From a bacterium (GTDB taxonomy: Bacteria > Patescibacteriota > Andersenbacteria > UBA10190 > CAIZMI01), in contig JAUSJG010000007.1 in NCBI GenBank assembly GCA_030647555.1, positions 36,169 to 100,168 on the forward strand: 64,000 nucleotides of DNA, in the 5' to 3' direction. A model generated the notes under the pieces. The model did not search any database. It had not been told where the DNA came from and saw only the letters and a program-made list of their open reading frames with translations. The translations under genes were made by a program, and so were the position numbers. Below, one piece after another: positions 3,172 to 50,969 of this stretch. How positions within the stretch are numbered: position 1 is the first letter of the stretch; every line of letters begins with the position of its first letter.

Positions 3172-4015
3172 CGTATATTTTGCGCCAAATATTTCGTCGA
3201 ATCCGAAAAACTTCCCCCAATACTTCAATATATGCGCCAGCCGACACGCGACTATTTGGATCGTTTAGCCAAACTACCGGTGCTTCTTTCATCTTAAAAC
3301 CAAGCCGTTGTGCCACCGCCAAAATTTCAACGTCAAATCCCCAGCGATCGATAGTTAGACGAGGACAAATTTTTTCCACTGATGCGCCCGTAAACATCTT
3401 AAACCCACACTGCGTATCATGAATACCTCGTACGGCCATTATCTGAATCAAGAGGTTCCCCATCTGTCCCGCTAACTCCTTATACCAAGCTTGATGAATT
3501 TCTACATCCGAATCACTCAAGTGACGCGAGCCAATCACAATATCATATCCCTGTTCCTTAAAATATGGGAAAAAACGGTCAACATGATCGATGGAAGTAG
3601 AATTATCCGCATCCATAAAGACTCGATATTTACCAACAGCTTGCATTAAGCCATATCGAACGGCGTAGCCCTTGCCGTGATTCTTCGCGTCAGGATACTG
3701 GACAGCCTCAAATTTCTGAATTCCTTTTATCGCACCGGCCTGCACTTGCGTCTTGGTGGCAAAATCACGCACCACATCACTTGTTTTGTCTTTTGAACCA
3801 TCGTCTACCACCAATATCTCGGATGAATAATTCTGCTTTTGCAAAAACGCAACAACACTCTTTAGTGTTTCCGGGAGTCGTTTTTCCTCGTTATAAGCGG
3901 GAATGATGACGGAGAGGTAGGTGGTAGCTTGTTTTTCCACCGGGTTTGATGTTTCAGACATGGCTAGATTATAACATGACTTTCGATTGACATAAAATGC
4001 CGAAAAAATTATCAA
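3146..4015 (-). CDS. Family 2 glycosyltransferase (dolichol-P-sugar/polyprenol-P glycosyltransferase-like)
   Basis: 289 aa. The N-terminal VIIPAYNEE...VVDDGSKD motifs are typical of GT2. Confidence 0.8.
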   Translation of the reverse strand: MIIFSAFYVNRKSCYNLAMSETSNPVEKQATTYLSVIIPAYNEEKRLPETLKSVVAFLQKQNYSSEILVVDDGSKDKTSDVVRDFATKTQVQAGAIKGIQKFEAVQYPDAKNHGKGYAVRYGLMQAVGKYRVFMDADNSTSIDHVDRFFPYFKEQGYDIVIGSRHLSDSDVEIHQAWYKELAGQMGNLLIQIMAVRGIHDTQCGFKMFTGASVEKICPRLTIDRWGFDVEILAVAQRLGFKMKEAPVVWLNDPNSRVSAGAYIEVLGEVFRIRRNIWRKIYDDPFHQVI

Positions 4016-4133
4016 TTTTCAATGGCCAATTTTCAATTAATGTTCAAACTCCAATTTTCAAACAACGACGTCGTAATTGATAATTGAGCCATTGATAATT
4101 AATTGAAAATTGGGAATTGATAATTGAAAATTA
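3998..4133. repeat. Family B long imperfect palindrome. Arms are built from TCAATT/TTGATAATT units around a central CAAACAACGACGTCG.
   Basis: The left arm is the approximate reverse complement of the right arm around the centre near 4068. The same architecture and central motif recur at 12442, 15770, 17748, 18862, 34030, 36683 and 42233. Confidence 0.8.
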
Positions 4134-6029: not shown

Positions 6030-6155
6030 AACCCCAAATCCCAATGTCCAATGTCCAACAAAATCACAAATCCAAAAACCCAAAACGACGTGTTTTTGGG
6101 ATTTAGATAATTTAGGATTTTGTTGAGGTTTGGGGTTTGAAAATTGGGATTTTCA
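6030..6155. repeat. Family C long imperfect palindrome. Arms are built from CCCAAA/TTTGGG units around a centre AAAACGACGTGTTTT.
   Basis: Left arm CCCCAAATCCCAATGTCCAA..., right arm ...TTGGGGTTTGAAAATTGGGATTTT. Related copies are at 9526 and 16676. Confidence 0.75.
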
Positions 6156-9525: not shown

Positions 9526-9680
9526 AAATTCCAAACCCCAATGACCCAGCCGTCGCTAAAGCTATGGCCGGCAGGCCAATGTCCAACAAAATCCTAAACA
9601 CACTAAAACCCAAAGACGCGTTTTGGGATTTAGGAAATTATGGTTTTGTTGGGATTTGGGGTTTGGACATTGGGATTTTT
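9526..9680. repeat. Family C long imperfect palindrome
   Basis: Arms are CCAAACCCCAATGACCCAG...CCAATGTCCAACAAAATCCTAAACAC and ...GGGATTTAGGAAATTATGGTTTTGTTGGGATTTGGGGTTTGGACATTGGG, around CAAAGACGCGTTTTGGG. Confidence 0.75.
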
Positions 9681-10182: not shown

Positions 10183-10707
10183 TTATTCTCCTTTCTTTAC
10201 TTCCGGTTGAGCTTCTACTACTTCGGTTACTTTAGCTTTTTTCAACGGTCGAGCTTGCATCGCGGTAAGGGCCATTATTGTCGCTTTTACGACATTCAAG
10301 CTGTTGTGGGAACCCATCATTTTGCTGGACAAATCACGTAAACCGCCAAGCAAGGCAACCGAACGAATAGGGCCACCGGCAATAATACCGGAACCTTGCG
10401 GAGCCGGTTTTAAGAAAACTGTGGCGCCACGAAAGGTGCGAGTAATTTCATGCGGGATTGTTCCGCCTTCAATAATGAAGCGAACGACGTTTTTCTTAGC
10501 CGATTCTTGCGCTTTGCTAATTGCGTTTTGCACATCCGCGCCCTTGGAAACACCCAAACCGACATTACCGCGCTTGTCGCCAATAATTACCGTGGCGCGA
10601 AAACGGAAACGACGTCCACCTTTAACCACGCGCGTCACACGACGTAATTCAACTACGCGATGGTCAAATTGGTCGTCACTTTGTCCTGGAAATTTTTGGA
10701 ATGCCAT
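10183..10707 (-). CDS. rpsE: 30S ribosomal protein S5
   Basis: Starts MAFQKF... and contains RVVKGGRRFRFRATVIIGD. The start is set at the ATG at 10705-10707. The longer TTG-initiated ORF reads into the repeat element. Confidence 0.9.
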   Translation of the reverse strand: MAFQKFPGQSDDQFDHRVVELRRVTRVVKGGRRFRFRATVIIGDKRGNVGLGVSKGADVQNAISKAQESAKKNVVRFIIEGGTIPHEITRTFRGATVFLKPAPQGSGIIAGGPIRSVALLGGLRDLSSKMMGSHNSLNVVKATIMALTAMQARPLKKAKVTEVVEAQPEVKKGE

Positions 10708-10864
10708 ACCCAGTATATCAACTTCCAATTTGAACAAACTTTGTTTGTTCAAAACTGGCAAGCATTAAGGTTAATTTATTTCGCTTAGTCATATGTTTGA
10801 TTGATGAATAATCTATTTTCATGAAATTGGAAGTTGTATTACTGGGCATGGTAATTAGTTTATA
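10708..10864. repeat. Family A MITE-like element. Termini CATACCCAGTATATCAAC / GTTGTATTACTGGGCAT; internal hairpin TTGAACAAACtttGTTTGTTCAA.
   Basis: 157 bp lying exactly between the rplR stop and the rpsE start codon. It has imperfect 18-bp TIRs and is flanked by CAT triplets. It is near-identical to the copy at 14688-14834. Confidence 0.8.
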
Positions 10865-11245
10865 TTAGAATTCAAGTCCGCCACTTCGAGCGCCATCGGC
10901 TACAGCCTTCACTACGCCGTGATACAAATAACCACCGCGATCAAAAACAACTTTCTTAATACCGGCCTTTTTGGCCTTTTCCGCCAAATTTTCACCTAGC
11001 GCAAAACCTTTTGCAACACGCGCGGTACGCTCTTTAGTTGCTTTGATTTTCTTATCTAATTCTTGATCGCGCGCCGAAACAAGTGTTTTGCTGTTGGCAT
11101 CATCGATCAGTTGCAAAATCAAATGTTTGTTACTGCGATAAACAGACAAACGAGGAAGTTCCGCAACACCGGAAACACGGCTACGAATGCGGTTGTGGCG
11201 CTTTAAGCGATTAACTTTTCTTGTGATAGATGGAGATTTAAACAT
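10865..11245 (-). CDS. rplR: 50S ribosomal protein L18
   Basis: 126 aa. L18 family similarity; ends ...FDRGGYLYHG. Confidence 0.9.
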   Translation of the reverse strand: MFKSPSITRKVNRLKRHNRIRSRVSGVAELPRLSVYRSNKHLILQLIDDANSKTLVSARDQELDKKIKATKERTARVAKGFALGENLAEKAKKAGIKKVVFDRGGYLYHGVVKAVADGARSGGLEF

Positions 11246-11265
11246 ATATTTGAATACTAGTTAAC

Positions 11266-11823
11266 TTATTTGCTATCGGTACCGCCAACAACCTTACCAA
11301 CCTTACGGCGAACATATTCGCCAACATAGCGGATACCCTTTCCTTTATATGGTTCCGGTTTGCGGGTCTTGCGGATAATTGCCGCTGTTTCACCAACCAA
11401 ATACTTATCAATACCGGTAATAGTGATAATACCTTTTTCAACGGCGAAACTGATGCCAGCCGGCGCAGGAATTTCCACTGGATGCGAATAACCAACCAGC
11501 AAAACAAGCGTACTGCCTTTCACTTCCGCGCGGTAACCGACACCTTGCACTTCCAATTTCTTTTCAAAACCAGCCGTAACGCCGGTGACAAGGTTTTGAA
11601 CTAACGCGCGAGACATTCCCCACAAGGCACCGATACCACCGATTTTTTCATCAGAAGTCTTCGGACGAACGACAATCGTTTCGTTTTCCAAAACGGCTTC
11701 AACGGCCGGATGCAAAGTCAAAGAAAGCGTGCCCTTAGGACCGGCAACAGAAACAGCACTACCATTAATTGTGACGGTGACGCCAGCAGTTACTTTGATA
11801 GGATTTTTACCAATTCTTGACAT
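11266..11823 (-). CDS. rplF: 50S ribosomal protein L6
   Basis: Starts MSRIGKNPIKV and has two L6 repeats. The start is set at the ATG at 11823. Confidence 0.9.
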   Translation of the reverse strand: MSRIGKNPIKVTAGVTVTINGSAVSVAGPKGTLSLTLHPAVEAVLENETIVVRPKTSDEKIGGIGALWGMSRALVQNLVTGVTAGFEKKLEVQGVGYRAEVKGSTLVLLVGYSHPVEIPAPAGISFAVEKGIITITGIDKYLVGETAAIIRKTRKPEPYKGKGIRYVGEYVRRKVGKVVGGTDSK

Positions 11824-11978
11824 ACCCAGTATATCAACCGCCAATGCAAGCGTTGAAACGCTTGCAAAAATCGGCCGAGATGAAGAATAAAGATGACATT
11901 TGAGTGATTCTAGAGTTTAATATAATTCTATTAACTTTGCAATAATTGGCGGTTGTATTACTGGGCATAATATTATAA
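11824..11978. repeat. Family A MITE-like element; internal hairpin CAAGCGTTgaaaCGCTTG
   Basis: 155 bp between the rpsH stop and the rplF ATG. Same termini as the other copies. About 95 % identical to the copy at 13515-13663. Confidence 0.8.
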
Positions 11979-12365
11979 TTACCAAACTTTACAAATAACT
12001 TCTCCACCAATTTTCTGACGGCGCGCTTCTTTGTCGGTCATCAAACCTTTTGAGGTGGAGATAACCGCGATACCGATACCGGACAAAACATGAGGAATTT
12101 CATCTTGACGCACATACCAACGACGGGACGGTTTGCTGACGCGCTGGATATCATTAATCACCGGGACAGTATCTTGATACAAAAGTGTCATTTCTAAAAC
12201 ACGCTGTGGGCCTTCTTCCATCGTTGTAACCGGACCAATCATGCCTTCTTTGCGAAGCACATCGGCAATTTGATGCTTAAGTTTAGAGTATGGAACACGT
12301 ACAACAGTAAGCCTTGCCGCCGAAGCGTTCTTGATACTCGTTACCATGTTTGCAATTTGATCCAT
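11979..12365 (-). CDS. rpsH: 30S ribosomal protein S8
   Basis: 128 aa. S8 family, in the conserved operon position. Confidence 0.9.
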   Translation of the reverse strand: MDQIANMVTSIKNASAARLTVVRVPYSKLKHQIADVLRKEGMIGPVTTMEEGPQRVLEMTLLYQDTVPVINDIQRVSKPSRRWYVRQDEIPHVLSGIGIAVISTSKGLMTDKEARRQKIGGEVICKVW

Positions 12366-12441
12366 AATATAGAATATTGTTAGATTAAACTATTTTTATC
12401 AGCAAATCCTTCACCGGACACATTTGGGGTTTTTATCAACT

Positions 12442-12612
12442 CCCTAATTTTCAATTTACAATTATCAATTTTCAATGAATTATCAATGCTTCCAGCCTTC
12501 GCCAAGGCTTCGGCCGGCAAGAAATTTTCAAACAACGACGCTACGCTCCGTTTTGATAATTTAAATAATTGAAAATTAATTGCAAAATTGATCATTGATA
12601 ATTGATAATTTG
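12442..12612. repeat. Family B long imperfect palindrome with an extra GC-rich insert (GCTTCCAGCCTTCGCCAAGGCTTCGGCCGG)
   Basis: Left arm CCCTAATTTTCAATTTACAATTATCAATTTTCAATGAATTATCAAT; centre CAAACAACGACGCTACG; right arm TTTGATAATTTAAATAATTGAAAATTAATTGCAAAATTGATCATTGATAATTGATAATT. Confidence 0.8.
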
Positions 12613-12689
12613 CAAACGTTAATTTACGAATTTCCCCCGTTGCTTTGTTTGAGATTAATGATTTCATAAGAGTATATAAGTATGTTCTA

Positions 12690-12875
12690 TTACCAAGACG
12701 CTTTTTTCACTCCGGGGATTTCACCACGACTGGCAAGCTCTCTGAAGCAAATACGACACATATCGAAATCACGCATATACCCACGACGACGACCACAACG
12801 GAAACATCTTCGAACAATTCGTGTAGAAAACTTCGGCTTCTTCTTTGCTTTCGCGATTTGTGAGGCTTTAGCCAT
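12690..12875 (-). CDS. rpsZ: 30S ribosomal protein S14 type Z (zinc-binding short form)
   Basis: 61 aa with CxxC...CxxC, in the S14 position between rplE and rpsH. Confidence 0.9.
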
Positions 12876-12899
12876 AAGTAAATATTAGATTCGTAATAA

Positions 12900-13514
12900 T
12901 TAAGCGTGCTTCTTGCTACTCGTCTTTTTTTGAACTCCGAAAACCTTCGTGTCTTCAATCGCCGCGTCTGTCAGCGGGAAACCAATACTTTCAAACAAAA
13001 CTTTCGCTTCTTCCTTATTCTTGGCAGTGGTAACAACCGTAACTTGCAAGCCGAAGATCGTTTCAATTTTCTGCGGATCTACTTCCGGAAAGGCAGCCGC
13101 TTCGCGAATCCCGACGGACATGTTGCCATTCTGATCGATACATTTGCTTTGAACACCACGGAAATCTCGAACACGAGGAAAAACAACATGAATCAGTTTC
13201 TTCAAAAAGTCGTCCATACGCTTACCACGCAATGTAACCATTAAACCGGCAACTTGATTTTCGCGAAGTTTAAAACCGGCAATGGATTTCTTGGATAATG
13301 TTTGGGCCGGTTTTTGGCCGGTGAGCAAAACCAAACCTTTTTCCACGTCTTCCAAAAACTTACCTTCTTTGGCGTGCTTACCAACACCCGACGCCACAAC
13401 AATGTGATCAACCCTTGGTAAGGACATCAAATTCTCACGTTTCAATTTTTCTTTCAAAATTGGCAACGCGTTTTGGAGATATGTTTCTTTGGAGTTGAGA
13501 CTAGACTTCGTCAT
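12900..13514 (-). CDS. rplE: 50S ribosomal protein L5
   Basis: Starts MTKSSLN... and shows L5 family similarity. The start is set at the ATG at 13514. Confidence 0.9.
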   Translation of the reverse strand: MTKSSLNSKETYLQNALPILKEKLKRENLMSLPRVDHIVVASGVGKHAKEGKFLEDVEKGLVLLTGQKPAQTLSKKSIAGFKLRENQVAGLMVTLRGKRMDDFLKKLIHVVFPRVRDFRGVQSKCIDQNGNMSVGIREAAAFPEVDPQKIETIFGLQVTVVTTAKNKEEAKVLFESIGFPLTDAAIEDTKVFGVQKKTSSKKHA

Positions 13515-13663
13515 ACCCCGTATATCAACCGCCAATGCAAGCGTTGAAACGCTTGCAAAAACCGGTCGAGATGAAAAATAAAGATAACATTTGAGTGATT
13601 CTAGAGTTTAATATATTTCTATTAACTTTGCAATAATTGGCGGTTGTATTACGGGGCATATAT
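13515..13663. repeat. Family A MITE-like element
   Basis: 149 bp between the rplX stop and the rplE ATG. Termini are CATACCCCGTATATCAAC / GTTGTATTACGGGGCAT. Confidence 0.8.
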
Positions 13664-14017
13664 TTAAGCAATAATAGCTGAACATTTTTTGCAAATTCGA
13701 TCACGGGTACTCTTGCCGTCCGTCGCAACCGTGCGTCTTAATCCGACGCGCGTGGCTTTTCCGCAAGACGGACAAATAAGCATTGTGCGAGAAACCGGAA
13801 CCTTTGACGGAATAGCAACCGTTTGTCCTTTTTCACCGGCTTTACGCGGACGAATGTGTTTCTTTACGATATTGGCGCCATCTACAACCAAACGACCTTC
13901 TTTAGGAAATACAACCAACACCTTTCCCGTCTTGTCACGATCTTTACCGGACAACATTTTTACGGTGTCGCCTTTCTTAATCTTTATCTTCAACACTTTT
14001 TCAAGTTTCTTTACCAT
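13664..14017 (-). CDS. rplX: 50S ribosomal protein L24 with a C-terminal zinc-ribbon extension
   Basis: KOW motif [22 protein letters not shown]-terminal CPSCGK...CKKC extension is absent from typical L24. Confidence 0.8.
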
Positions 14018-14382
14018 ACTTCTGGGGCTAATGAAATAATTTTTTGATAACCTTTATCACGCACTTCACGCGCGATGGGTCCAAAAATACGCGTTCCCAT
14101 CGGTTCCTTCGAATCTTTTTGCAAAACCACCGCCGCGTTCTCATCAAAACGAATATGGGAACCATCCGCGCGAGAAACTTCTTTGCGTTGACGAACAACA
14201 ACCGCTCTCACCACATCACCCTTTTTTACCAAGCCACGCGGTTGCGCCGATTTAACGGAACAAACAATCATATCACCCATATAAGAATAGCGACGACCGG
14301 TGTTACCGATAACTTTTATACACTGCAAAAGTGTCGCTCCGGAGTTGTCGGCAACCGAAAGCATTGTGCGCATCTGAATCAT
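14011..14382 (-). CDS. rplN: 50S ribosomal protein L14
   Basis: Starts [16 protein letters not shown], a canonical L14 start. Confidence 0.9.
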
Positions 14383-14687
14383 ACTGTTTCTCCTTTAATT
14401 ACGGCCGATGTAACAATACTCACTAAGCGAAAATTCTTACGGGCGGACATTGGACGACATTTTTCAATCGTCACCTTATCATTCATTTTCGCTTCCCCTT
14501 TTTCATCATGCACCAAATATTTCTTTGAACGACTATATTGCTTGTGTAATTTCAAATGCCATACCAAACGGTCCACTTTAACCGCAATTGTTTTGGTCAT
14601 CTTTCCTGCAGACACGACAATCCCAGTCAACCGTTGCGGGTGTTTTTCAGATACTACTTCTTCTGTTTTTTGAGTAACTTTAGTCAT
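14379..14687 (-). CDS. rpsQ: 30S ribosomal protein S17
   Basis: The S17 fold begins at MTKVTQ.... The start is set at the ATG at 14685-14687. Confidence 0.85.
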
Positions 14688-14834
14688 GGCCCCGTATATC
14701 AACTTCCAATTTGAACAAACTTTGTTTGTTCAAAACTGGCAAGCATTAAAATTAAAACTTTTTGCACGTTCATATTTTTTCTGATTAAGTAATTCATTAT
14801 TTTAAAATTGGAAGTTGTATTTCGGGGCATGACT
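14688..14834. repeat. Family A MITE-like element
   Basis: 147 bp between the rpmC stop and the rpsQ ATG. Termini CATGGCCCCGTATATCAAC / GTTGTATTTCGGGGCAT. Confidence 0.8.
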
Positions 14835-15116
14835 TTATTTCGTAGATGAATGAGAATTATTCTCATGTTCCGTAAGAATTGTCAACCCTTCGACGTTGCT
14901 CAGGGTTGACCCCTCGACTCGGCTCGGGGATAACCGTGACTCGTGTAGAACGGTCAAGCATCTCGCTAATTCATGACGGACCATCGATAATTTCTTAACA
15001 TTTTTTTCGCTTCCCTTCGCCGACCCAAAACGCATTTGTTCAATTTGGGCACGCAATTCTTCTACTTTGACTTTCAAAGTTTCCGGCGCAATTTGTCTTA
15101 ATTCTTTTGCTTTCAT
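14835..15116 (-). CDS. rpmC: 50S ribosomal protein L29 with a ~30 aa C-terminal extension
   Basis: Starts MKAKELRQ...KVKVEELRAQIEQMRF. The start is set at the ATG at 15116. Confidence 0.8.
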   Translation of the reverse strand: MKAKELRQIAPETLKVKVEELRAQIEQMRFGSAKGSEKNVKKLSMVRHELARCLTVLHESRLSPSRVEGSTLSNVEGLTILTEHENNSHSSTK

Positions 15117-15263
15117 ACCCAGTATATCAACTTCCAATATAAGCAATCGCGGATTGCTTATATTTAATTATAACTAAGCTTGCATTCTTCATATTATTCT
15201 GAATCAAATTTTGCTTGGAAATAAATTTCATAATATTGGAAGTTGTATTACTGGGCATAGGAT
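15117..15263. repeat. Family A MITE-like element; internal hairpin ATAAGCAATCgcgGATTGCTTAT
   Basis: 147 bp between the rplP stop and the rpmC ATG. Termini CATACCCAGTATATCAAC / GTTGTATTACTGGGCAT. Confidence 0.8.
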
Positions 15264-15686
15264 TTACAAAGATGATGTTTTACAAACAAAGGCGGTTTTT
15301 ACCGGCAATTTGTCGGAAGCCAAACGGATCGCGCGTTTTGTTGTTGCTTCATCCAATCCGTCAACTTCTAAAATAATACGCCCTCTGCGCACAACCGCCA
15401 CAAAGTGGTCGACCGCGCCCTTACCGGATCCCATTGGTACTTCCGCGCCCTTCTTCGTAATCGGCTTGTCCGGGAACACACGGATCCAAACTTTACCGGA
15501 ACGTTGCATAAAGCGTGTCATCGCGCGACGCGCCGCTTCCAGTTGACGCGCGGTAATCCAGCGACTTTCGAGCGCGCGCAAACCGTACTGGCCAAACGCT
15601 AACGTTGAACCGGCAACAGAGACTCCTCGCACCGAACCTTTTTGATGCTTACGGTGTTTGACTTTTTTGGGATTCAAAAGTGGCAT
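15264..15686 (-). CDS. rplP: 50S ribosomal protein L16
   Basis: 140 aa. L16 family; starts MPLLNPKKVKHRK. Confidence 0.9.
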   Translation of the reverse strand: MPLLNPKKVKHRKHQKGSVRGVSVAGSTLAFGQYGLRALESRWITARQLEAARRAMTRFMQRSGKVWIRVFPDKPITKKGAEVPMGSGKGAVDHFVAVVRRGRIILEVDGLDEATTKRAIRLASDKLPVKTAFVCKTSSL

Positions 15687-15769
15687 AATATTAGAAAATT
15701 TCAGCTAAATTGCGTTTATCAAACATTTCTGTAATCGAAGTTAAAATGTTTCGCAATATGCCACTAATT

Positions 15770-15905
15770 TTCAATTTACAATTATCAATTTTCAATGAAT
15801 TATCAATTCTTAAATTATCAAACAACGACGCGACGTTAATTTTTGAAAATTTAGATAATTGAAAATTAATTGCAAAATTGATAATTGATAATTGATAATT
15901 TACAA
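15770..15905. repeat. Family B long imperfect palindrome
   Basis: Arms AATTTTCAATTTACAATTATCAATTTTCAATGAATTATCAATTCTTAAATTATC and ATTGAAAATTAATTGCAAAATTGATAATTGATAATTGATAATT, around CAAACAACGACGCGACG. Confidence 0.8.
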
Positions 15906-15961
15906 AACTCATTTTCTTATCCGAATCATTTTGTGACATAAGCATCTTCATAAATTCATTA

Positions 15962-16603: not shown

Positions 16604-16675
16604 AAAGTATATTTTAAATAAAGCTATTTTCCAGAAATAAATTACTGCTATTTTCCTTTCCTGATTCAGTTACGC

Positions 16676-16810
16676 CCAAAAATCTCAAACTCCAAATCCC
16701 AAATCCCAAAAACTTACTCGACGCAAAACCCGCGACGCGATTCAATGCGTTTTTGGACATTTGGTCATTGAGATTTTTTTGGAAATTGGTCATTGGAAAT
16801 TGGAAATTAT
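16676..16810. repeat. Family C long imperfect palindrome
   Basis: Arms CTCAAACTCCAAATCCCAAATCCCAAAAAC and TTTTGGACATTTGGTCATTGAGATTTTTTTGGAAATTGGTCATTGGAAATTGG, around GACGCAAAACCCGCGACGCG. Confidence 0.75.
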
Positions 16811-17676: not shown

Positions 17677-17747
17677 GTTAGGAAACCTTTAACGAAAAAT
17701 TAAGCAACTTACAACCATCTTCATTCAAACGATTATTCTCCTTAACA

Positions 17748-17900
17748 AGCCCCCAAATGTTCAATTTCCAATTACCAATTTTCAATAAATTATCAATGAT
17801 TAAATTATCAAATAACGCGCTCACGTCGTAGTATTTTGAAAATTCGAACTTTTGAAAATTATTTGAAAATTGCAAAATTGATAATTGAAAATTACCAATT
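17748..17900. repeat. Family B long imperfect palindrome
   Basis: Arms CCCCAAATGTTCAATTTCCAATTACCAATTTTCAATAAATTATCAATG... and ...TTTGAAAATTATTTGAAAATTGCAAAATTGATAATTGAAAATTACCAATT. Confidence 0.8.
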
Positions 17901-17953
17901 CTTCTCAAGCTCTTCATTGTTTTATCCACAATAGATGGTTTCATAATTTACTT

Positions 17954-18790: not shown

Positions 18791-18861
18791 ATCAGGAAGC
18801 TTTTAGGTTACAACTTAACTTATTCACATTTAATTTATTGATAACAACTACTGAATCTACA

Positions 18862-18985
18862 AAATCCCTAATTACCAATTTCCAATTACCAATTTCCAAT
18901 GAATGCCCAATTCCAAAATTTCCAAAAGGGACTACGCCAACATGCTTTGAAAATTTAGACATTTGAAAATTTGCAGTGGTATCAA
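18862..18985. repeat. Family B-like long imperfect palindrome of the CCAATT/AATTGG type
   Basis: Arms CCTAATTACCAATTTCCAATTACCAATTTCCAATGAATGCCCAATTCCAAAATTTCC and GCTTTGAAAATTTAGACATTTGAAAATTTGCAGTGG. Confidence 0.65.
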
Positions 18986-19018
18986 TATTCATTTTTGGGC
19001 AAATATTTTTCATAAAAG

Positions 19019-19453
19019 TCATTTTGTAAAATCAATAACCTCACCCTTGCGCACAAACACCACTGCTTTTCTGTATCCCGAAATCCTGCCCTCAATCGCG
19101 CCACGCATGCGCTTTTTTGGATGCACTGTCACAACATTGACGCGCGTCACATGCACCTTAAAACGTTTTTCCACAATCTGGTGAATTTCTTGCTTAGTAG
19201 CGTAATCGGCAATTTGAAATGTATAACGACCATCCGCGGAAAGGATGGCGGATTTTTCCGTAACAATCGGACGAATCAAAACATTGGCCTTAATTCCCTT
19301 AAAAGACGAAAGGTCGACGGAAGTTTTTTCTTCCTTTACTTCCTTGACTTTTTTTGCAGGTTTCTCGACACCATTTTCTTTTTTGTCCAACGCTTCTGCC
19401 GCGACAATATCAGCCTTGGTTTCTTTTTTCTTGAATACGGAGAGAATACTCAT
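19019..19453 (-). CDS. rplW: 50S ribosomal protein L23 with an ~45 aa N-terminal extension
   Basis: The L23 core is the C-terminal ~95 aa; the N-terminus is lysine/glutamate-rich. Confidence 0.8.
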   Translation of the reverse strand: MSILSVFKKKETKADIVAAEALDKKENGVEKPAKKVKEVKEEKTSVDLSSFKGIKANVLIRPIVTEKSAILSADGRYTFQIADYATKQEIHQIVEKRFKVHVTRVNVVTVHPKKRMRGAIEGRISGYRKAVVFVRKGEVIDFTK

Positions 19454-20920: not shown

Positions 20921-21062
20921 ATGAATTTTTAATTTGAAATTTGAAATTTTTAATCAATTTGAAATAAACTAATATCTTAATTTGAAAAACGCGTTTTTAT
21001 TTATTTCAAATTTGTGTATTAAAAATTGATTTCAAATTAAAAATTTCAAATTTCAAATTCGC
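20921..21062. repeat. Family D long imperfect palindrome. Arms are TTTGAAAT/ATTTCAAA units around GAAAAACGCGTTTTT.
   Basis: Near-identical arms occur at 41308-41451 and 44813-44948; all three share AATTTTTAATTTGAAATTTGAAATTTTTAATCAATTTGAAATA. Confidence 0.8.
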
Positions 21063-22619: not shown

Positions 22620-22814
22620 TCACTTCATCGAGACGTCGACACCCGCCGGGATTTGCAAGCTTTGCAACGCGTCTACCGTCTTGGGTGTAAAGTTTTGAAT
22701 GTCGATGAGGCGCTTATGCACCCGAATTTCATACTGATCACGCGCGTCTTTGTGCACAAACGTTGAGCTGTTCACCGTGTAACGCTTCCGTTCTGTTGTT
22801 TCATCGGCGTGCAA
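22620..22814 (-). pseudogene. Duplicated 3' fragment of rpsJ (the last ~60 codons of S10) plus a copy of its terminator hairpin (22478-22504)
   Basis: Nucleotides 22478-22799 are ~95 % identical to 29472-29698. The two copies differ by an extra ~95 nt at 22505-22620. The encoded peptide [57 protein letters not shown] is identical to the S10 C-terminus. Confidence 0.85.
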
Positions 22815-29512: not shown

Positions 29513-29899
29513 TTATTTCATAGACACATCTACACCTGCCGGGATTTGCAGGCTCTGCAACGCGTCTACCGTCTTGGGTGTAAAGTTTTGAATATCGATG
29601 AGGCGCTTGTGGACGCGAATCTCATACTGATCACGCGCGTCTTTGTGCACAAACGTTGAGCTGTTCACCGTGTAACGCTTCCGTTCTGTTGGAAGCGGTA
29701 CCGGACCAAAAACGCGGGCTCCGGTTCTGATCACCGTATCGGCAATTTGCTTTGCCGATTGATCCACGAGCTTGTAATCATAAGCCTTGATCTTGATGCG
29801 AATTCTCGGCCCCGTTTGTTCCGGAGTGACAGCCACGGCTTCCGCCACAACCTCATCCGTAACATCTTTGGCGTCGTCAATTATTTCGTCCGTAGGCAT
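29513..29899 (-). CDS. rpsJ: 30S ribosomal protein S10 with an ~25 aa acidic N-terminal extension
   Basis: The C-terminal 100 aa are canonical S10: [10 protein letters not shown]...RLIDI. Confidence 0.9.
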
Positions 29900-33957: not shown

Positions 33958-34029
33958 GGGGGGAGTATATTTAAATTAAACTATTTTCACAAGTTAATTT
34001 TACGCCGGATGGTAATGTGTTTTTAAGAA

Positions 34030-34122
34030 GCCCCCAAATTTTCAATTTCCAATTACCAATTTTCAAATAATTATCAATTCCAAAATTTTCAAACAACGAC
34101 GCGACGTTCCGTTTTGATAATT
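34030..34122. repeat. Family B element, partial: left arm and centre only; the right arm is replaced by a GC-rich hairpin GCCCGCCACATCGGCGGG
   Basis: CCCCAAATTTTCAATTTCCAATTACCAATTTTCAAATAATTATCAATTCCAAAATTTTCAAACAACGACGCGACGTTCCGTTTTGATAATT. Confidence 0.7.
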
Positions 34123-36623: not shown

Positions 36624-36682
36624 AGTTTGATAAAAACTTGTGTTTTAAATTTTCAATCTCGTTCCAATGATTTTAACAACTA

Positions 36683-36810
36683 AATTATCAATTTTCAATG
36701 ACCAATTTTCAATTAATGATCAATTCTTAAATTATCAAAAGACGGCGTCATAATTGATAATTGAGCCCTTGATAATTAATTGAAAATTGGTCATTGAAAA
36801 TTGATAATTT
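36683..36810. repeat. Family B long imperfect palindrome
   Basis: Arms TAAATTATCAATTTTCAATGACCAATTTTCAATTAATGATCAATTCTTAAATTATC and ATTGATAATTGAGCCCTTGATAATTAATTGAAAATTGGTCATTGAAAATTGATAATTT, around AAAAGACGGCGTCAT. Confidence 0.8.
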
Positions 36811-36889
36811 TGTCGTGGGACTACTTTTCTTGCCTAAATCACGTCTCCGTGTTAAATTCCTTCAGTATTTAATTCTATTCCCCATCCCT

Positions 36890-41307: not shown

Positions 41308-41451
41308 TCTAAATTTTTAATTTGAAATTTGAAATTTTTAATCAATTTGAAATAAATAAATATTTTAATAACGAATTACGTCCATCGCGGTATTTCAAAT
41401 TTTTATATTTCAAATTGATTTCAAATTTCAAATTAAAAATTTCAAATTCGA
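41308..41451. repeat. Family D long imperfect palindrome
   Basis: AATTTTTAATTTGAAATTTGAAATTTTTAATCAATTTGAAATAAATAAA ... TTTCAAATTGATTTCAAATTTCAAATTAAAAATTTCAAATTCG. Confidence 0.8.
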
Positions 41452-42232: not shown

Positions 42233-42360
42233 CAAAATTACCAATTATCAATGACCAATTATCAATTAATTTTCAAGATTCAATTTTCAATTTGATACCG
42301 TAATTGATAATTTATGAATTGATAATTAATTGAAAATTGGGGATTGATAATTGAAAATTA
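42233..42360. repeat. Family B long imperfect palindrome
   Basis: CCAAAATTACCAATTATCAATGACCAATTATCAATTAATTTTCAAGATTCAATTTTCAATTTGATACCG TAATTGATAATTTATGAATTGATAATTAATTGAAAATTGGGGATTGATAATTGAAAATT. Confidence 0.8.
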
Positions 42361-44812: not shown

Positions 44813-44948
44813 TAATTTTTAATTTGAAATTTGAAATTTTTAATCAATTTGAAATATCGTAATAGCTTAATTGAAAAACGCGCGATTATTTCAAATTTAA
44901 ATATTAAAAATTGATTTCAAATTGTAAATTTCAAATTTCAAATTCGAG
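44813..44948. repeat. Family D long imperfect palindrome
   Basis: AATTTTTAATTTGAAATTTGAAATTTTTAATCAATTTGAAATATCG ... ATTTCAAATTTAAATATTAAAAATTGATTTCAAATTGTAAATTTCAAATTTCAAATTCG. Confidence 0.8.
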
Positions 44949-50648: not shown

Positions 50649-50744
50649 GAATAAAACTCACCTCTTTCTTTAAATTTGAATGCCTAAATAGTAACAGGGC
50701 AACCAAAAAGTGTCAAAATTCTGTAGACAACCGTCAAACAGGGT

Positions 50745-50960
50745 CCGTCCCTGCACGCCAGGGTCGGACCCTGATCGGCGTAGTAAAAAGTTTTCGTCGT
50801 CGCATACCCCTCTTTCCACACCACACGTAACTTTAGTAAAATGTGGTTTCAAAGAGAGCCACCCATTTGGGCGAGTCGCTCTGATGAGCGGGAATCAGCG
50901 TCGTCGAGAGGGTGCGTCCCTGCCGAGCAGGGTCGGACCCTGATTTGCGTCAAAAAAGTT
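50745..50960. repeat. Two ~70-bp direct repeats, each containing CAGGGTCGGACCCTG-type REP-like hairpins
   Basis: 50745-50815 and 50905-50975 share GGGT(C/G)CGTCCCTGC...CAGGGTCGGACCCTGAT..GCGT..AAAAAGTTTTC. Confidence 0.7.
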
Positions 50961-50969
50961 TTCATCGCG

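Follow-up and report, generated by a model that had tools for sequence, protein, structure and literature searches.

Start-codon insertions in a Patescibacteria ribosomal-protein operon share their ends with a small element encoding a GIY-YIG nuclease

The DNA analyzed here, referred to as the window, is a 64,000-nucleotide (nt) stretch of an Andersenbacteria genome of the Patescibacteria (contig JAUSJG010000007.1, assembly GCA_030647555.1), with a G+C content of 43.6%. Its S10-spc ribosomal-protein operon occupies ~9.7 to 20.7 kb on the minus strand, and Shine-Dalgarno-like motifs precede ~20% of the window gene starts that were checked. Five related elements of 142 to 148 nt, named c1 to c5, lie in this operon on the minus strand and sit on the ATGs of rpsE, rplF, rplE, rpsQ, and rpmC. 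A preliminary description, made from the letters of the window, had reported five related copies at these five starts, and both terminal motifs indeed occur far above chance expectation. The motif GTTGTATTACTGGGCAT has five matches in the window with up to 3 mismatches, compared to 0.11 expected, while CATACCCAGTATATCAAC has four compared to 0.02 expected, the copy at rpsQ being missed by one additional base.

Element bounds are given here from the upstream ATG through the host ATG on the minus strand (Table 1). In the mRNA, the 5′ half of each window copy reads native spacer, ATG, CCC(A/C)G(T/A)AATACAAC, 6 variable nt, and interior, and the 3′ half reads 6 complementary nt, GTTGATATAC(T/G)GGG, T or CC, and host ATG. 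The left ends proposed earlier were exact, but the right ends (10864, 11978, 13663, 14834, and 15263) include 4 to 15 nt of native spacer. The elements consequently do not fill the whole intergenic gap, as had been thought, since native spacer remains and is also present in relatives without the element. The CAT triplets noted on both flanks, ATG on the coding strand, were recovered in all five copies, and the ATG corresponds to the duplicated target. The division into three sub-types also held: c2 and c3 are 95% identical, c1 and c4 80%, and c5 stands apart, each sub-type having its own predicted hairpin beside the 3′ arm. Some 7 nt distinguish c2 from c3, and a compensated pair accounts for two of them. 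An independent assembly (L125) is 100% identical to the window over 1,074 nt spanning c5, so this stretch is not an assembly artifact. Rfam gave no relevant match for the whole window at the gathering score or for positions 10500 to 15500 at an E value of ≤1, and a scan for promoters and terminators returned only weak AT-rich matches without consistency between copies.

To place the copies in an evolutionary frame, the operon was compared with that of relatives whose L5 proteins are 92% (L126 to L128), 78% (L129), and 74% (L131) identical to the window protein (NCBI MDO8511913.1). Nucleotide identity to the window is ~80 to 98% for L126 and 88 to 95% for L250, which covers the rplX-rplE junction only. 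Junctions were counted only where the start call of the relative was comparable. Genes in the operons of these relatives are 0 to 25 nt apart, and every comparable junction carries a single ATG and no element: those of rpsE, rplE, and rpmC in L126, L129, and L131, that of rplF in L126 and L129, that of rpsQ in L129 and L131, and that of rplE also in L250. The flanks in the closest relative, L126, are nearly identical to those of the window. Upstream of rpmC, for instance, the window reads ...tgtaaatcct ATG[element]ATG aaagcaaaagaa, whereas L126 reads ...tgtaactcct ATG aaagcaaaagaa, and a blastn alignment of the operon with L126 breaks exactly at each copy. The native rpsQ site is CATG, and CATG stands on both sides of the inserted c4. 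Judging from these comparisons, the five spacers are insertions, and because their sites are empty in relatives with 88 to 95% nucleotide identity, the copies appear to be recent and dispensable. The idea that they might instead be ancient, non-mobile leader sequences thus failed when the related genomes were consulted.

In all five window copies, the upstream ATG opens a reading frame of 43 to 44 codons, MPSNTT[S/A]N...IG[S/G]*, which ends at a TGA within GTTGATATAC, 10 to 11 nt upstream of the host ATG. All other frames of these copies, on both strands, contain 2 to 7 stops each. The encoded peptides have no Pfam match. Between c2 and c3, 5 of the 44 residues have changed, which means that conservation extends to the frame but not to the peptide. 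We refer to this open reading frame (ORF) as the relay ORF, for reasons given below.

The origin of the relay ORF is suggested by a longer form of the same element. One long copy among the genome matches (L109) has the same termini around an ORF for a GIY-YIG protein, and the contexts of three homologues are laid out in this way where an ftsK-like gene, dnaE (MPKFVNLHTHSHYSLLDG), and fpg (MPELPEVE) begin, including a compensated variant, CCTAG/CTAGG. A metagenome scan for window-type termini 270 to 300 nt apart yielded a form of ~330 bp at 116 loci, with ends mostly 309, 312, or 315 bp apart. The full element can be written as [Y]ATG, CCCNGTAATACAAC + 6 variable bp ... 6 complementary bp + GTTGATATACNGGG, [Y]ATG. 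Ninety-eight of the 116 long loci encode a protein of ~101 residues that begins with MPSNTT at the flanking ATG and finishes with ...FGSGS*, its stop being the same TGA and lying 10 nt ahead of the host ATG. The 5′ repeat encodes the first seven codons (MPSNTTS), and the 3′ repeat encodes the last two codons and the stop (GS*). The upstream flank of the long form is TATG in 78 cases and CATG in 13, and the downstream flank is TATG in 79. A gene begins at the 3′ ATG of 108 of 109 long copies, with 104 Pfam families among 98 downstream proteins. The window mini-ORFs have the start, the first seven codons, the frame, the last two codons, and the stop in common with this gene; by sequence, they are deletion or replacement derivatives of it that have lost the nuclease domain.

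The element ORF matches the Pfam GIY-YIG family PF01541 with E values of 4e-14 and 9e-16; the only other Pfam match is a weak one to the related T5orf172 family, and there is a sub-threshold match to an NCBIfam group I intron endonuclease model. A phmmer search against the PDB returned 1zg2, a UPF0213 protein (E value of 4e-8), and 1ywl (1.4e-3). Across 64 nuclease sequences, Y14, Y25, R35, E59, R70, and E71 are invariant. An AlphaFold2 model (mean predicted local distance difference test score [pLDDT] of 86) has a beta-beta-alpha-beta-alpha topology without an accessory domain; its C-terminal tail is disordered, as are residues 1 to 5 (MPSNT), which the 5′ repeat encodes. Foldseek ranked 1zg2 first, followed by the Slx1 nuclease domains 6seh, 7cq2, and 4xm5 (root mean square deviations of 1.7 to 3.4 Å); I-TevI came far lower, in 15th place, and UvrC in 20th. 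From sequence and model together, the 101-residue protein is thus classed as a GIY-YIG nuclease of the UPF0213/Slx1-like type. Its ORF is under purifying selection, as judged by a dN/dS of ~0.12 among 83 intact ORFs, a value that is approximate, with dS near saturation. Homologues at an E value of ≤1e-10 form 699 protein clusters, and nearly all of the best 120 of these read MP[S/R/G]NTT...G[S/R]* and carry generic annotations only. The element ORFs belong to none of the known insertion sequence (IS) transposase classes (DDE, DEDD, HUH, serine, or tyrosine). When an autonomous element with a conventional transposase was sought through unpaired termini in 120 loci (~0.8 Mb), only nested or tandem copies and L109 were found.

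At least two further repeat subfamilies have the same architecture and start-codon placement, as seen in L065 (5232-5480, minus strand), L121 (2501-2803), L122 (2501-2803), and L124 (2330-2800). One of them has the ends CCCAGTAACAATACTTC.. and ..GAAGTAATTGTTACTGGG and the protein MPSNNTSP...AVWHRVK*, and another has CCCAGTTCCAATACC.. and ..GGTAGTTGGAACTGGG. The coding copy in L065 is related, its protein beginning MPSNNTSP at the flanking ATG. Repeat subfamily tracks nuclease subfamily. In addition, some orthologous host genes (52 to 70% identical) carry a full-length coding copy in one genome and a short copy or copies in another (L155 versus L059; L139, L171, and L181 versus L058; L191 and L248 versus L089; and L221 versus L108), which indicates that copies either decayed in place or hit one start codon more than once. 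Other small UPF0213 GIY-YIG genes of the candidate phyla radiation (CPR) lack the MPSN terminus and lie beside tRNA-like sequence (L009, 1883-2101; L024, 3502-3711; L058, 2404-2607). Duplicated tRNA 5′ segments flank the gene in L009 and L024, while in L058 the tRNA-like sequence was seen upstream only. This arrangement suggests that related nucleases may colonize tRNA genes instead of start codons.

We then turned to the ends of the element. In predicted folds, the termini pair in all five window copies, as the preliminary description had proposed for the mRNA, with free energies of −42 to −51 kcal/mol and z-scores of −6.2 to −7.4. The helix consists of 4 bp (YAUG/YAUG), 7 bp, a 3-by-3 AUA/AUA mismatch, and 10 bp, for a total of 21 paired bp. 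Six positions beyond CAAC/GTTG were unconstrained in the search pattern, and their pairing was examined in 122 distinct short copies. These six positions pair in 98 to 99% of the copies, and each of them shows three to four types of Watson-Crick pair (e.g., TA 40, CG 27, GC 26, and AT 26), and the free position of CCCNG/CNGGG pairs in 93%. Pairing ends abruptly past the sixth variable pair; the bases just outside the element pair at a background level of 31 to 39%. Terminal complementarity is thus clearly maintained at the sequence level. Since G·T and A·C mismatches are few and equally rare, this covariation cannot separate an RNA stem from a DNA hairpin. The TGA stop of the element ORF sits in the conserved 3-by-3 mismatch of the 3′ repeat. 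A perfect complement of the 5′ arm would be GTTGTATTAC, which has no stop in the ORF frame; it is therefore the conserved AUA/AUA mismatch that creates the TGA. In a second repeat subfamily, an additional base creates a TAA. The mismatch may exist because the 3′ arm has to hold a stop codon.

A search pattern made from both termini recovered the same ends at at least 120 loci in many Patescibacteria/CPR lineages. The host metagenome-assembled genomes (MAGs) include Doudna-, Kerfeld-, Uhr-, Azam-, Terry-, Portnoy-, Komeili-, Lipton-, and Yanofskybacteria, among others, and in each of two MAGs there are 11 loci or more. All named relatives of the element are Patescibacteria/CPR genomes; some source MAGs bear Gammaproteobacteria or Saccharibacteria labels that stem from automated submission. 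Only one match was found in viral contigs, which gives no sign of phage carriage. AT precedes 128 of 139 terminus matches, making ATG, and N-ATG follows nearly all of them. The placement on start codons that was first seen in the window proved to be a rule of the whole family: 121 of 123 complete short copies are sense oriented on the ATG of a gene or of another copy, in line with the 108 of 109 long copies mentioned above. An ORF of at least 50 codons begins exactly at the 3′ ATG in 92% of the 123, and 8 of the 10 exceptions are tandem arrays in which the 3′ ATG doubles as the first ATG of the next copy. For the first protein of both the short and the long sets, the Pfam match of the downstream protein starts at profile position 1. 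The proteins downstream of short copies matched 125 Pfam families among 109 proteins and have ordinary housekeeping roles (GatA, RuvA, RecA, MreB, SecA, FtsA, enolase, and many ribosomal proteins).

The base before the ATG is T in 86% of the copies and is the same on both sides in 114 of 123 (107 T/T and 7 C/C). This agreement favors a 4-bp duplication, so the target duplication is probably YATG. Compared to 522 control gene starts, occupied targets have T or C at position −1 in 98% versus 60% of cases, and no position other than −1 differed when an extended target motif was sought against the same controls. At least eight clusters of short copies have interiors that are at least 85% identical at different, unrelated sites, from which it follows that the short copies themselves spread recently. 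[quoted passage not shown] Two loci show how the ends can accommodate other sequence. In L116 (6286-6633, minus-strand orientation), a different small hairpin element is nested in the 3′ repeat (GTTGA/CCCCGTAGAG...CTACGGGG/TTGATATAC), and the interior of L081 (1192-1690) has internal repeat units.

The window contains 690 YATG sites, of which ~118 lie in non-coding DNA and ~34 at gene starts. If copies inserted at random and those within genes were then lost, only ~22% would be expected on starts. The 98% placement on start codons in one orientation is explained neither by a DNA motif nor by simple purifying selection, and short copies need no expression of their own.

Taking these results together, we consider it probable that the window copies are miniature, non-autonomous derivatives of the ~330-bp element, a selfish element of Patescibacteria, and that they are tolerated because the relay ORF preserves translational coupling. 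As read from the sequence, insertion at a start codon duplicates YATG; the upstream ATG, in its native host context, is the start of the element ORF, and the second ATG, 10 nt past the element stop, is that of the host gene. Ribosomes that finish the upstream ribosomal-protein gene, whose stop is 4 to 15 nt away, would reinitiate on the element ATG and, by translating through the element, keep the 21-bp terminal helix melted, as the host AUG would otherwise be buried. They would then terminate 10 nt before the host ATG and reinitiate there, so that coupling along the operon is kept. The scarcity of Shine-Dalgarno-like motifs in the window speaks for such a relay. Translation of the relay ORFs and reinitiation are what we infer from the sequence. 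As for mobility, Slx1 is a structure-specific nuclease for branched DNA, which makes the helix-forming ends an obvious candidate substrate for such an enzyme, supplied in trans to short copies. We are evenly divided on a further proposal, namely, that the ~330-bp form represents a new class of autonomous transposable element, one that specifically colonizes start codons and is moved by its Slx1-like nuclease, which would recognize the hairpin or cruciform made by the repeats and cut at YATG; the window copies would be its MITEs, which remain translatable in the operon as relay ORFs. The relay ORF in each copy, its descent from a GIY-YIG gene, and the role of the mismatch as the site of the stop codon were all absent from the preliminary description.

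A second set of insertions in the operon bears on the relay idea. Five AT-rich palindromic insertions of an unrelated family, with arms such as AATTGAAAATTGATAATTG, lie at other junctions (Table 1) and are absent from L126, L129, and L131. Each has exactly one sense frame that is stop free over its whole 170 to 280 nt (59 to 95 codons), beginning at most 22 nt past the upstream stop and ending 1 to 14 nt before the next ATG, and the other frames have 1 to 16 stops. All 10 intergenic insertions of the ribosomal-protein operon, from two unrelated families, are thus bridged by ORFs. Unlike these, six of the seven shorter copies of the second family located outside the operon (125 to 160 nt) are closed in all six frames, a difference that lends independent support to the relay idea. 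In L250, an AT-rich palindromic insertion with a 68-codon ORF (1163-1405) lies between rplE and rpsN, where the window has 24 nt. Since L250 lacks the element at rplE but has this palindrome, both insertion families are polymorphic among close relatives.

Several observations weigh against the explanation that we favor. Across the family, 43 of 123 short copies have a frame 0 that stays open until at most 25 nt before the host ATG, compared to 8 of 123 for frame 1, and the TGA is in frame in 69 of 123; at the sequence level, the open frame is an enrichment and no universal rule. Only ~35% of short copies keep a full relay ORF and the others stop after roughly 10 to 25 codons, so a complete relay cannot be essential everywhere. 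Translation of these first 10 to 25 codons may still hold the 5′ arm unpaired and leave the host AUG exposed. Open relay ORFs were not significantly enriched at sites inside operons (P = 0.08 when the window copies are included and 0.31 when they are left out). There is no intact nuclease copy within the 64-kb window, a 4-bp target cannot explain the start-codon specificity, and the dN/dS estimate is subject to the saturation noted above. Many of the metagenome loci represent one organism sampled repeatedly, so that there are fewer than 116 independent full-length sites; the full-length copy P0295, for example, occupies the same locus in all 10 contigs listed, which come from 10 different samples. 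Finally, we know of no GIY-YIG enzyme that catalyzes transposition, and the nuclease could be a passenger rather than the mobilizing enzyme.

Other explanations were weighed against the same evidence. The preliminary description had proposed that the element stays in the mRNA and that its stem sets the upstream stop beside the downstream AUG, so that ribosomes reinitiate without translating the insert. The terminal helix is predicted in all five copies and kept family-wide by covariation, hairpins bridge the split ribosome-binding sites of phage T4 genes 38 and 25, and the ~65% of short copies that precede intact housekeeping genes without a full-length relay ORF imply that some ORF-independent route of expression must exist. 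However, folding pairs the two AUGs with each other (UAUG/UAUG), so that the host AUG is itself held (A-U, U-A, and G·U) in a helix of −42 to −51 kcal/mol, which should hide it and block initiation. This makes a bridging stem less likely than a relay. The proposal also leaves unexplained why frame 0 is open in all five copies and about five times as often as frame 1 in the family, and why unrelated palindromic insertions in the operon are bridged by ORFs, and the covariation on which it draws does not tell an RNA stem from a DNA hairpin. We therefore regard it as unlikely. The same long, nearly perfect helix is the kind of substrate that RNase III cuts, and Correia elements of Neisseria and rRNA intervening sequences are processed by this enzyme, so the host might have co-opted the short copies as regulatory or processing modules, for example, RNase III sites that uncouple cistrons or stems that tune ribosomal-protein stoichiometry, and would retain them for such a role instead of merely tolerating them. 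All five window copies lie in the ribosomal-protein operon despite the ~34 YATG gene starts available, ribosomal-protein genes appear over-represented among the hosts (at least 17 of 109), and P0295 recurs at its one locus in 10 samples. We nonetheless find co-option very unlikely, given that sites are empty in relatives at 88 to 95% nucleotide identity, host genes are functionally unrelated, interiors are unconserved (as in the c2 and c3 peptides), and no Rfam family matches.

With regard to mobility, the repeats might be moved by another enzyme, such as a transposase or host recombination, with the GIY-YIG gene as cargo or an addiction module and the short copies as ordinary MITEs. Inverted repeats together with a 4-bp duplication are typical of DDE transposons, and the lack of a known transposing GIY-YIG enzyme and of a nuclease copy in the window would fit. 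Yet the whole element is taken up by the nuclease ORF in 98 of the 116 long copies, the ORF termini MPSNTTS and GS* are encoded by the repeats themselves, repeat and nuclease subfamilies track each other, the ORF is under purifying selection, and the unpaired termini within the ~0.8 Mb of loci retrieved led to no longer element that combines these ends with a different ORF. We find this possibility, too, very unlikely. As the copies are highly structured and immediately upstream of ribosomal-protein genes, one might also take the spacers for conserved cis-regulatory leaders, riboswitch-like or autoregulatory, rather than mobile DNA. This reading was rejected on account of the empty sites and the diversity of the host genes and retains hardly any plausibility: the spacers are absent at orthologous junctions of close relatives, the element precedes more than 100 unrelated gene families, tandem arrays exist, and no Rfam match was obtained at the gathering score or at an E value of <0.5.

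The short copies have their closest counterpart in the Correia elements (CREE/NEMIS) of Neisseria, which are likewise ~100 to 160 bp long, have terminal inverted repeats and a short target duplication, reach tens of copies per genome, are cotranscribed with neighboring genes, can form a long mRNA hairpin through their termini, and lack a transposase of their own. Correia elements, however, duplicate TA and occupy varied intergenic positions, whereas the present elements duplicate YATG and occupy start codons in one orientation (121 of 123). Correia elements also have 26-bp repeats and an IHF site, and the repeats of the present elements are unrelated to theirs. The full-length relative encodes a GIY-YIG nuclease rather than a DDE transposase, and in many copies an ORF beginning at the duplicated start codon has been retained. 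Repetitive extragenic palindromes (REP/BIME) and their RAYT genes, of the IS200/IS605-like Y1 type, are similar in that many short, non-coding hairpin copies accompany few nuclease or transposase genes flanked by the same repeats, and IS200/IS605 elements also have a tetranucleotide target. Their enzyme, however, is of the HUH/Y1 type, IS200/IS605 makes no target duplication, and REPs are mainly found downstream of genes and not on start codons.

The coding form resembles free-standing GIY-YIG homing genes (Seg of T-even phages and I-TevI-type genes) as a small selfish nuclease gene that sits between host genes and relies on host transcription. Homing endonucleases have a C-terminal DNA-binding domain and one long target, spread by homologous repair, and have neither inverted repeats nor a target duplication, whereas here a bare domain of ~100 residues, structurally nearer to Slx1/UPF0213 than to I-TevI, is combined with a 21-bp helix-forming repeat, a 4-bp duplication, and more than 100 unrelated occupied genes. 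The best match in both sequence and fold is to UPF0213/YhbQ/prokaryotic Slx1-like proteins (1zg2 and 1ywl), which have the same size and the core Y..Y...YxGxT...R..H...E...RE..LK. That family is described as vertically inherited and its members as probable repair enzymes in a 2006 phylogenomic study of GIY-YIG proteins (PMC1564403). The nucleases here differ in that they occur in multiple copies and lie between repeats from which their own N and C termini are encoded; polymorphism between close relatives was seen for the short derivatives, which have the same ends and targets and were the copies examined.

The proposed relay would act like the MS2 coat-replicase and ermC leader systems, in which a helix concealing the next start is opened by translation of the ORF ahead of it, which also delivers ribosomes nearby. 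In the present case, the upstream ORF is brought by an inserted mobile element rather than evolved in place. Rickettsia palindromic elements are a further parallel, being small palindromic mobile repeats in expressed regions of reduced genomes that are tolerated because they are translatable; they interrupt coding sequences in frame and are incorporated into the protein, whereas here a separate cistron is formed at a gene boundary. The ~330-bp partner element can be assigned to none of the known IS classes, nor is it a homing endonuclease gene of the conventional kind. Literature and preprint searches found no published description of the element or its start-codon strategy, so that it is apparently undescribed. 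The nearest published remark is that GIY-YIG proteins in CPR rRNA genes lie in non-intron insertions (PMC11270868).

The coding form, at ~0.33 kb, would add a transposon-like family whose sole gene is a minimal GIY-YIG nuclease. If it does represent a new class, it would be among the smallest self-contained mobile elements known and the first with start-codon targeting; it is widespread in the CPR. To our knowledge, GIY-YIG chemistry is absent from current insertion-sequence classifications. The parasitic strategy would be to insert at a start codon, use the host initiation site for the element ORF, and give the host a start codon back, which offers an explanation for how compact CPR operons tolerate large intergenic insertions. 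How near-absolute start-codon placement arises from a 4-bp target is a mechanistic puzzle. In practical terms, hundreds of CPR proteins that now carry the annotation "GIY-YIG nuclease family protein" or "excinuclease ABC subunit C" would have to be reconsidered as mobile-element genes, and gene callers will misplace starts near these elements.

Table 1. Positions of the start-codon elements, their relay ORFs, and the second palindromic family in the window
Feature	Position	Strand	Description
Copy c1, rpsE	10705-10849	minus	Upstream ATG 10847-10849; body CCCAG...CTGGGT 10708-10846; host ATG 10705-10707
c1, 5′ arm of terminal helix	10827-10850	minus	Y-ATG-CCCAGTA / ATA loop / CAAC+6; predicted fold, family covariation
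c1, 3′ arm of terminal helix	10705-10728	minus	6+GTTG / ATA loop including TGA / TACTGGG-T-ATG; includes rpsE start codon; predicted fold, family covariation
c1 relay ORF	10718-10849	minus	43 codons, MPSNTTSNF...VQIGS*; other five frames with 2-6 stops each
Copy c2, rplF	11821-11968	minus	Upstream ATG 11966-11968; body 11824-11965; host ATG 11821-11823
c2 terminal arms	11946-11969 and 11821-11844	minus	Predicted fold
c2 relay ORF	11834-11968	minus	44 codons, MPSNTTANYC...ACIGG*
Copy c3, rplE	13512-13659	minus	Upstream ATG 13657-13659; body 13515-13656; host ATG 13512-13514
c3 terminal arms	13637-13660 and 13512-13535	minus	Compensatory variant CCCCG/CGGGG
c3 relay ORF	13525-13659	minus	44 codons, MPRNTTANYC...ACIGG*
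Copy c4, rpsQ	14685-14830	minus	Upstream ATG 14828-14830; body 14688-14827; host ATG 14685-14687
c4 terminal arms	14808-14831 and 14685-14709	minus	CATG on either flank of element
c4 relay ORF	14699-14830	minus	43 codons, MPRNTTSNFK...VQIGS*
Copy c5, rpmC	15114-15258	minus	Upstream ATG 15256-15258; body 15117-15255; host ATG 15114-15116
c5 terminal arms	15236-15259 and 15114-15137	minus	Predicted fold
c5 relay ORF	15127-15258	minus	43 codons, MPSNTTSNIM...AYIGS*
Second-family insertion	18792-19022	minus	L23-L2 junction
Second-family insertion	17678-17944	minus	L2-S19 junction
Second-family insertion	16614-16793	minus	L22-S3 junction
Second-family insertion	15691-15961	minus	S3-L16 junction
Second-family insertion	12380-12688	minus	S14-S8 junction
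Second-family shorter copies	4007-4132, 20923-21060, 33963-34122, 36676-36816, 41311-41448, 42236-42360, 44814-44944		Outside operon

Further repeats were noted in the window. An in-frame, G+C-rich, hairpin-forming insertion of 72 nt with TTGAC flanks lies in rpmC (~14886-14957, minus strand) and adds 24 residues, L29 being 93 residues long in the window compared to 69 in L126 and 77 in L129; it resembles Rickettsia palindromic elements. The best promoter-like match of the region, TTGACA-18-AATAAT (14885-14856), spans the downstream edge of this insertion, and its first hexamer corresponds to the flanking TTGAC repeat. Other repeat families occur at 50740-50793 and 50909-50962, at 6048-6099 and 9576-9627, and at 22624-22798 and 29517-29691, and include G+C-rich GGGTC..GACCC hairpin repeats. 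Among them is a 175-nt direct repeat with 93% identity between its copies, one of which overlaps an rpsJ-like ORF (22620-22814).

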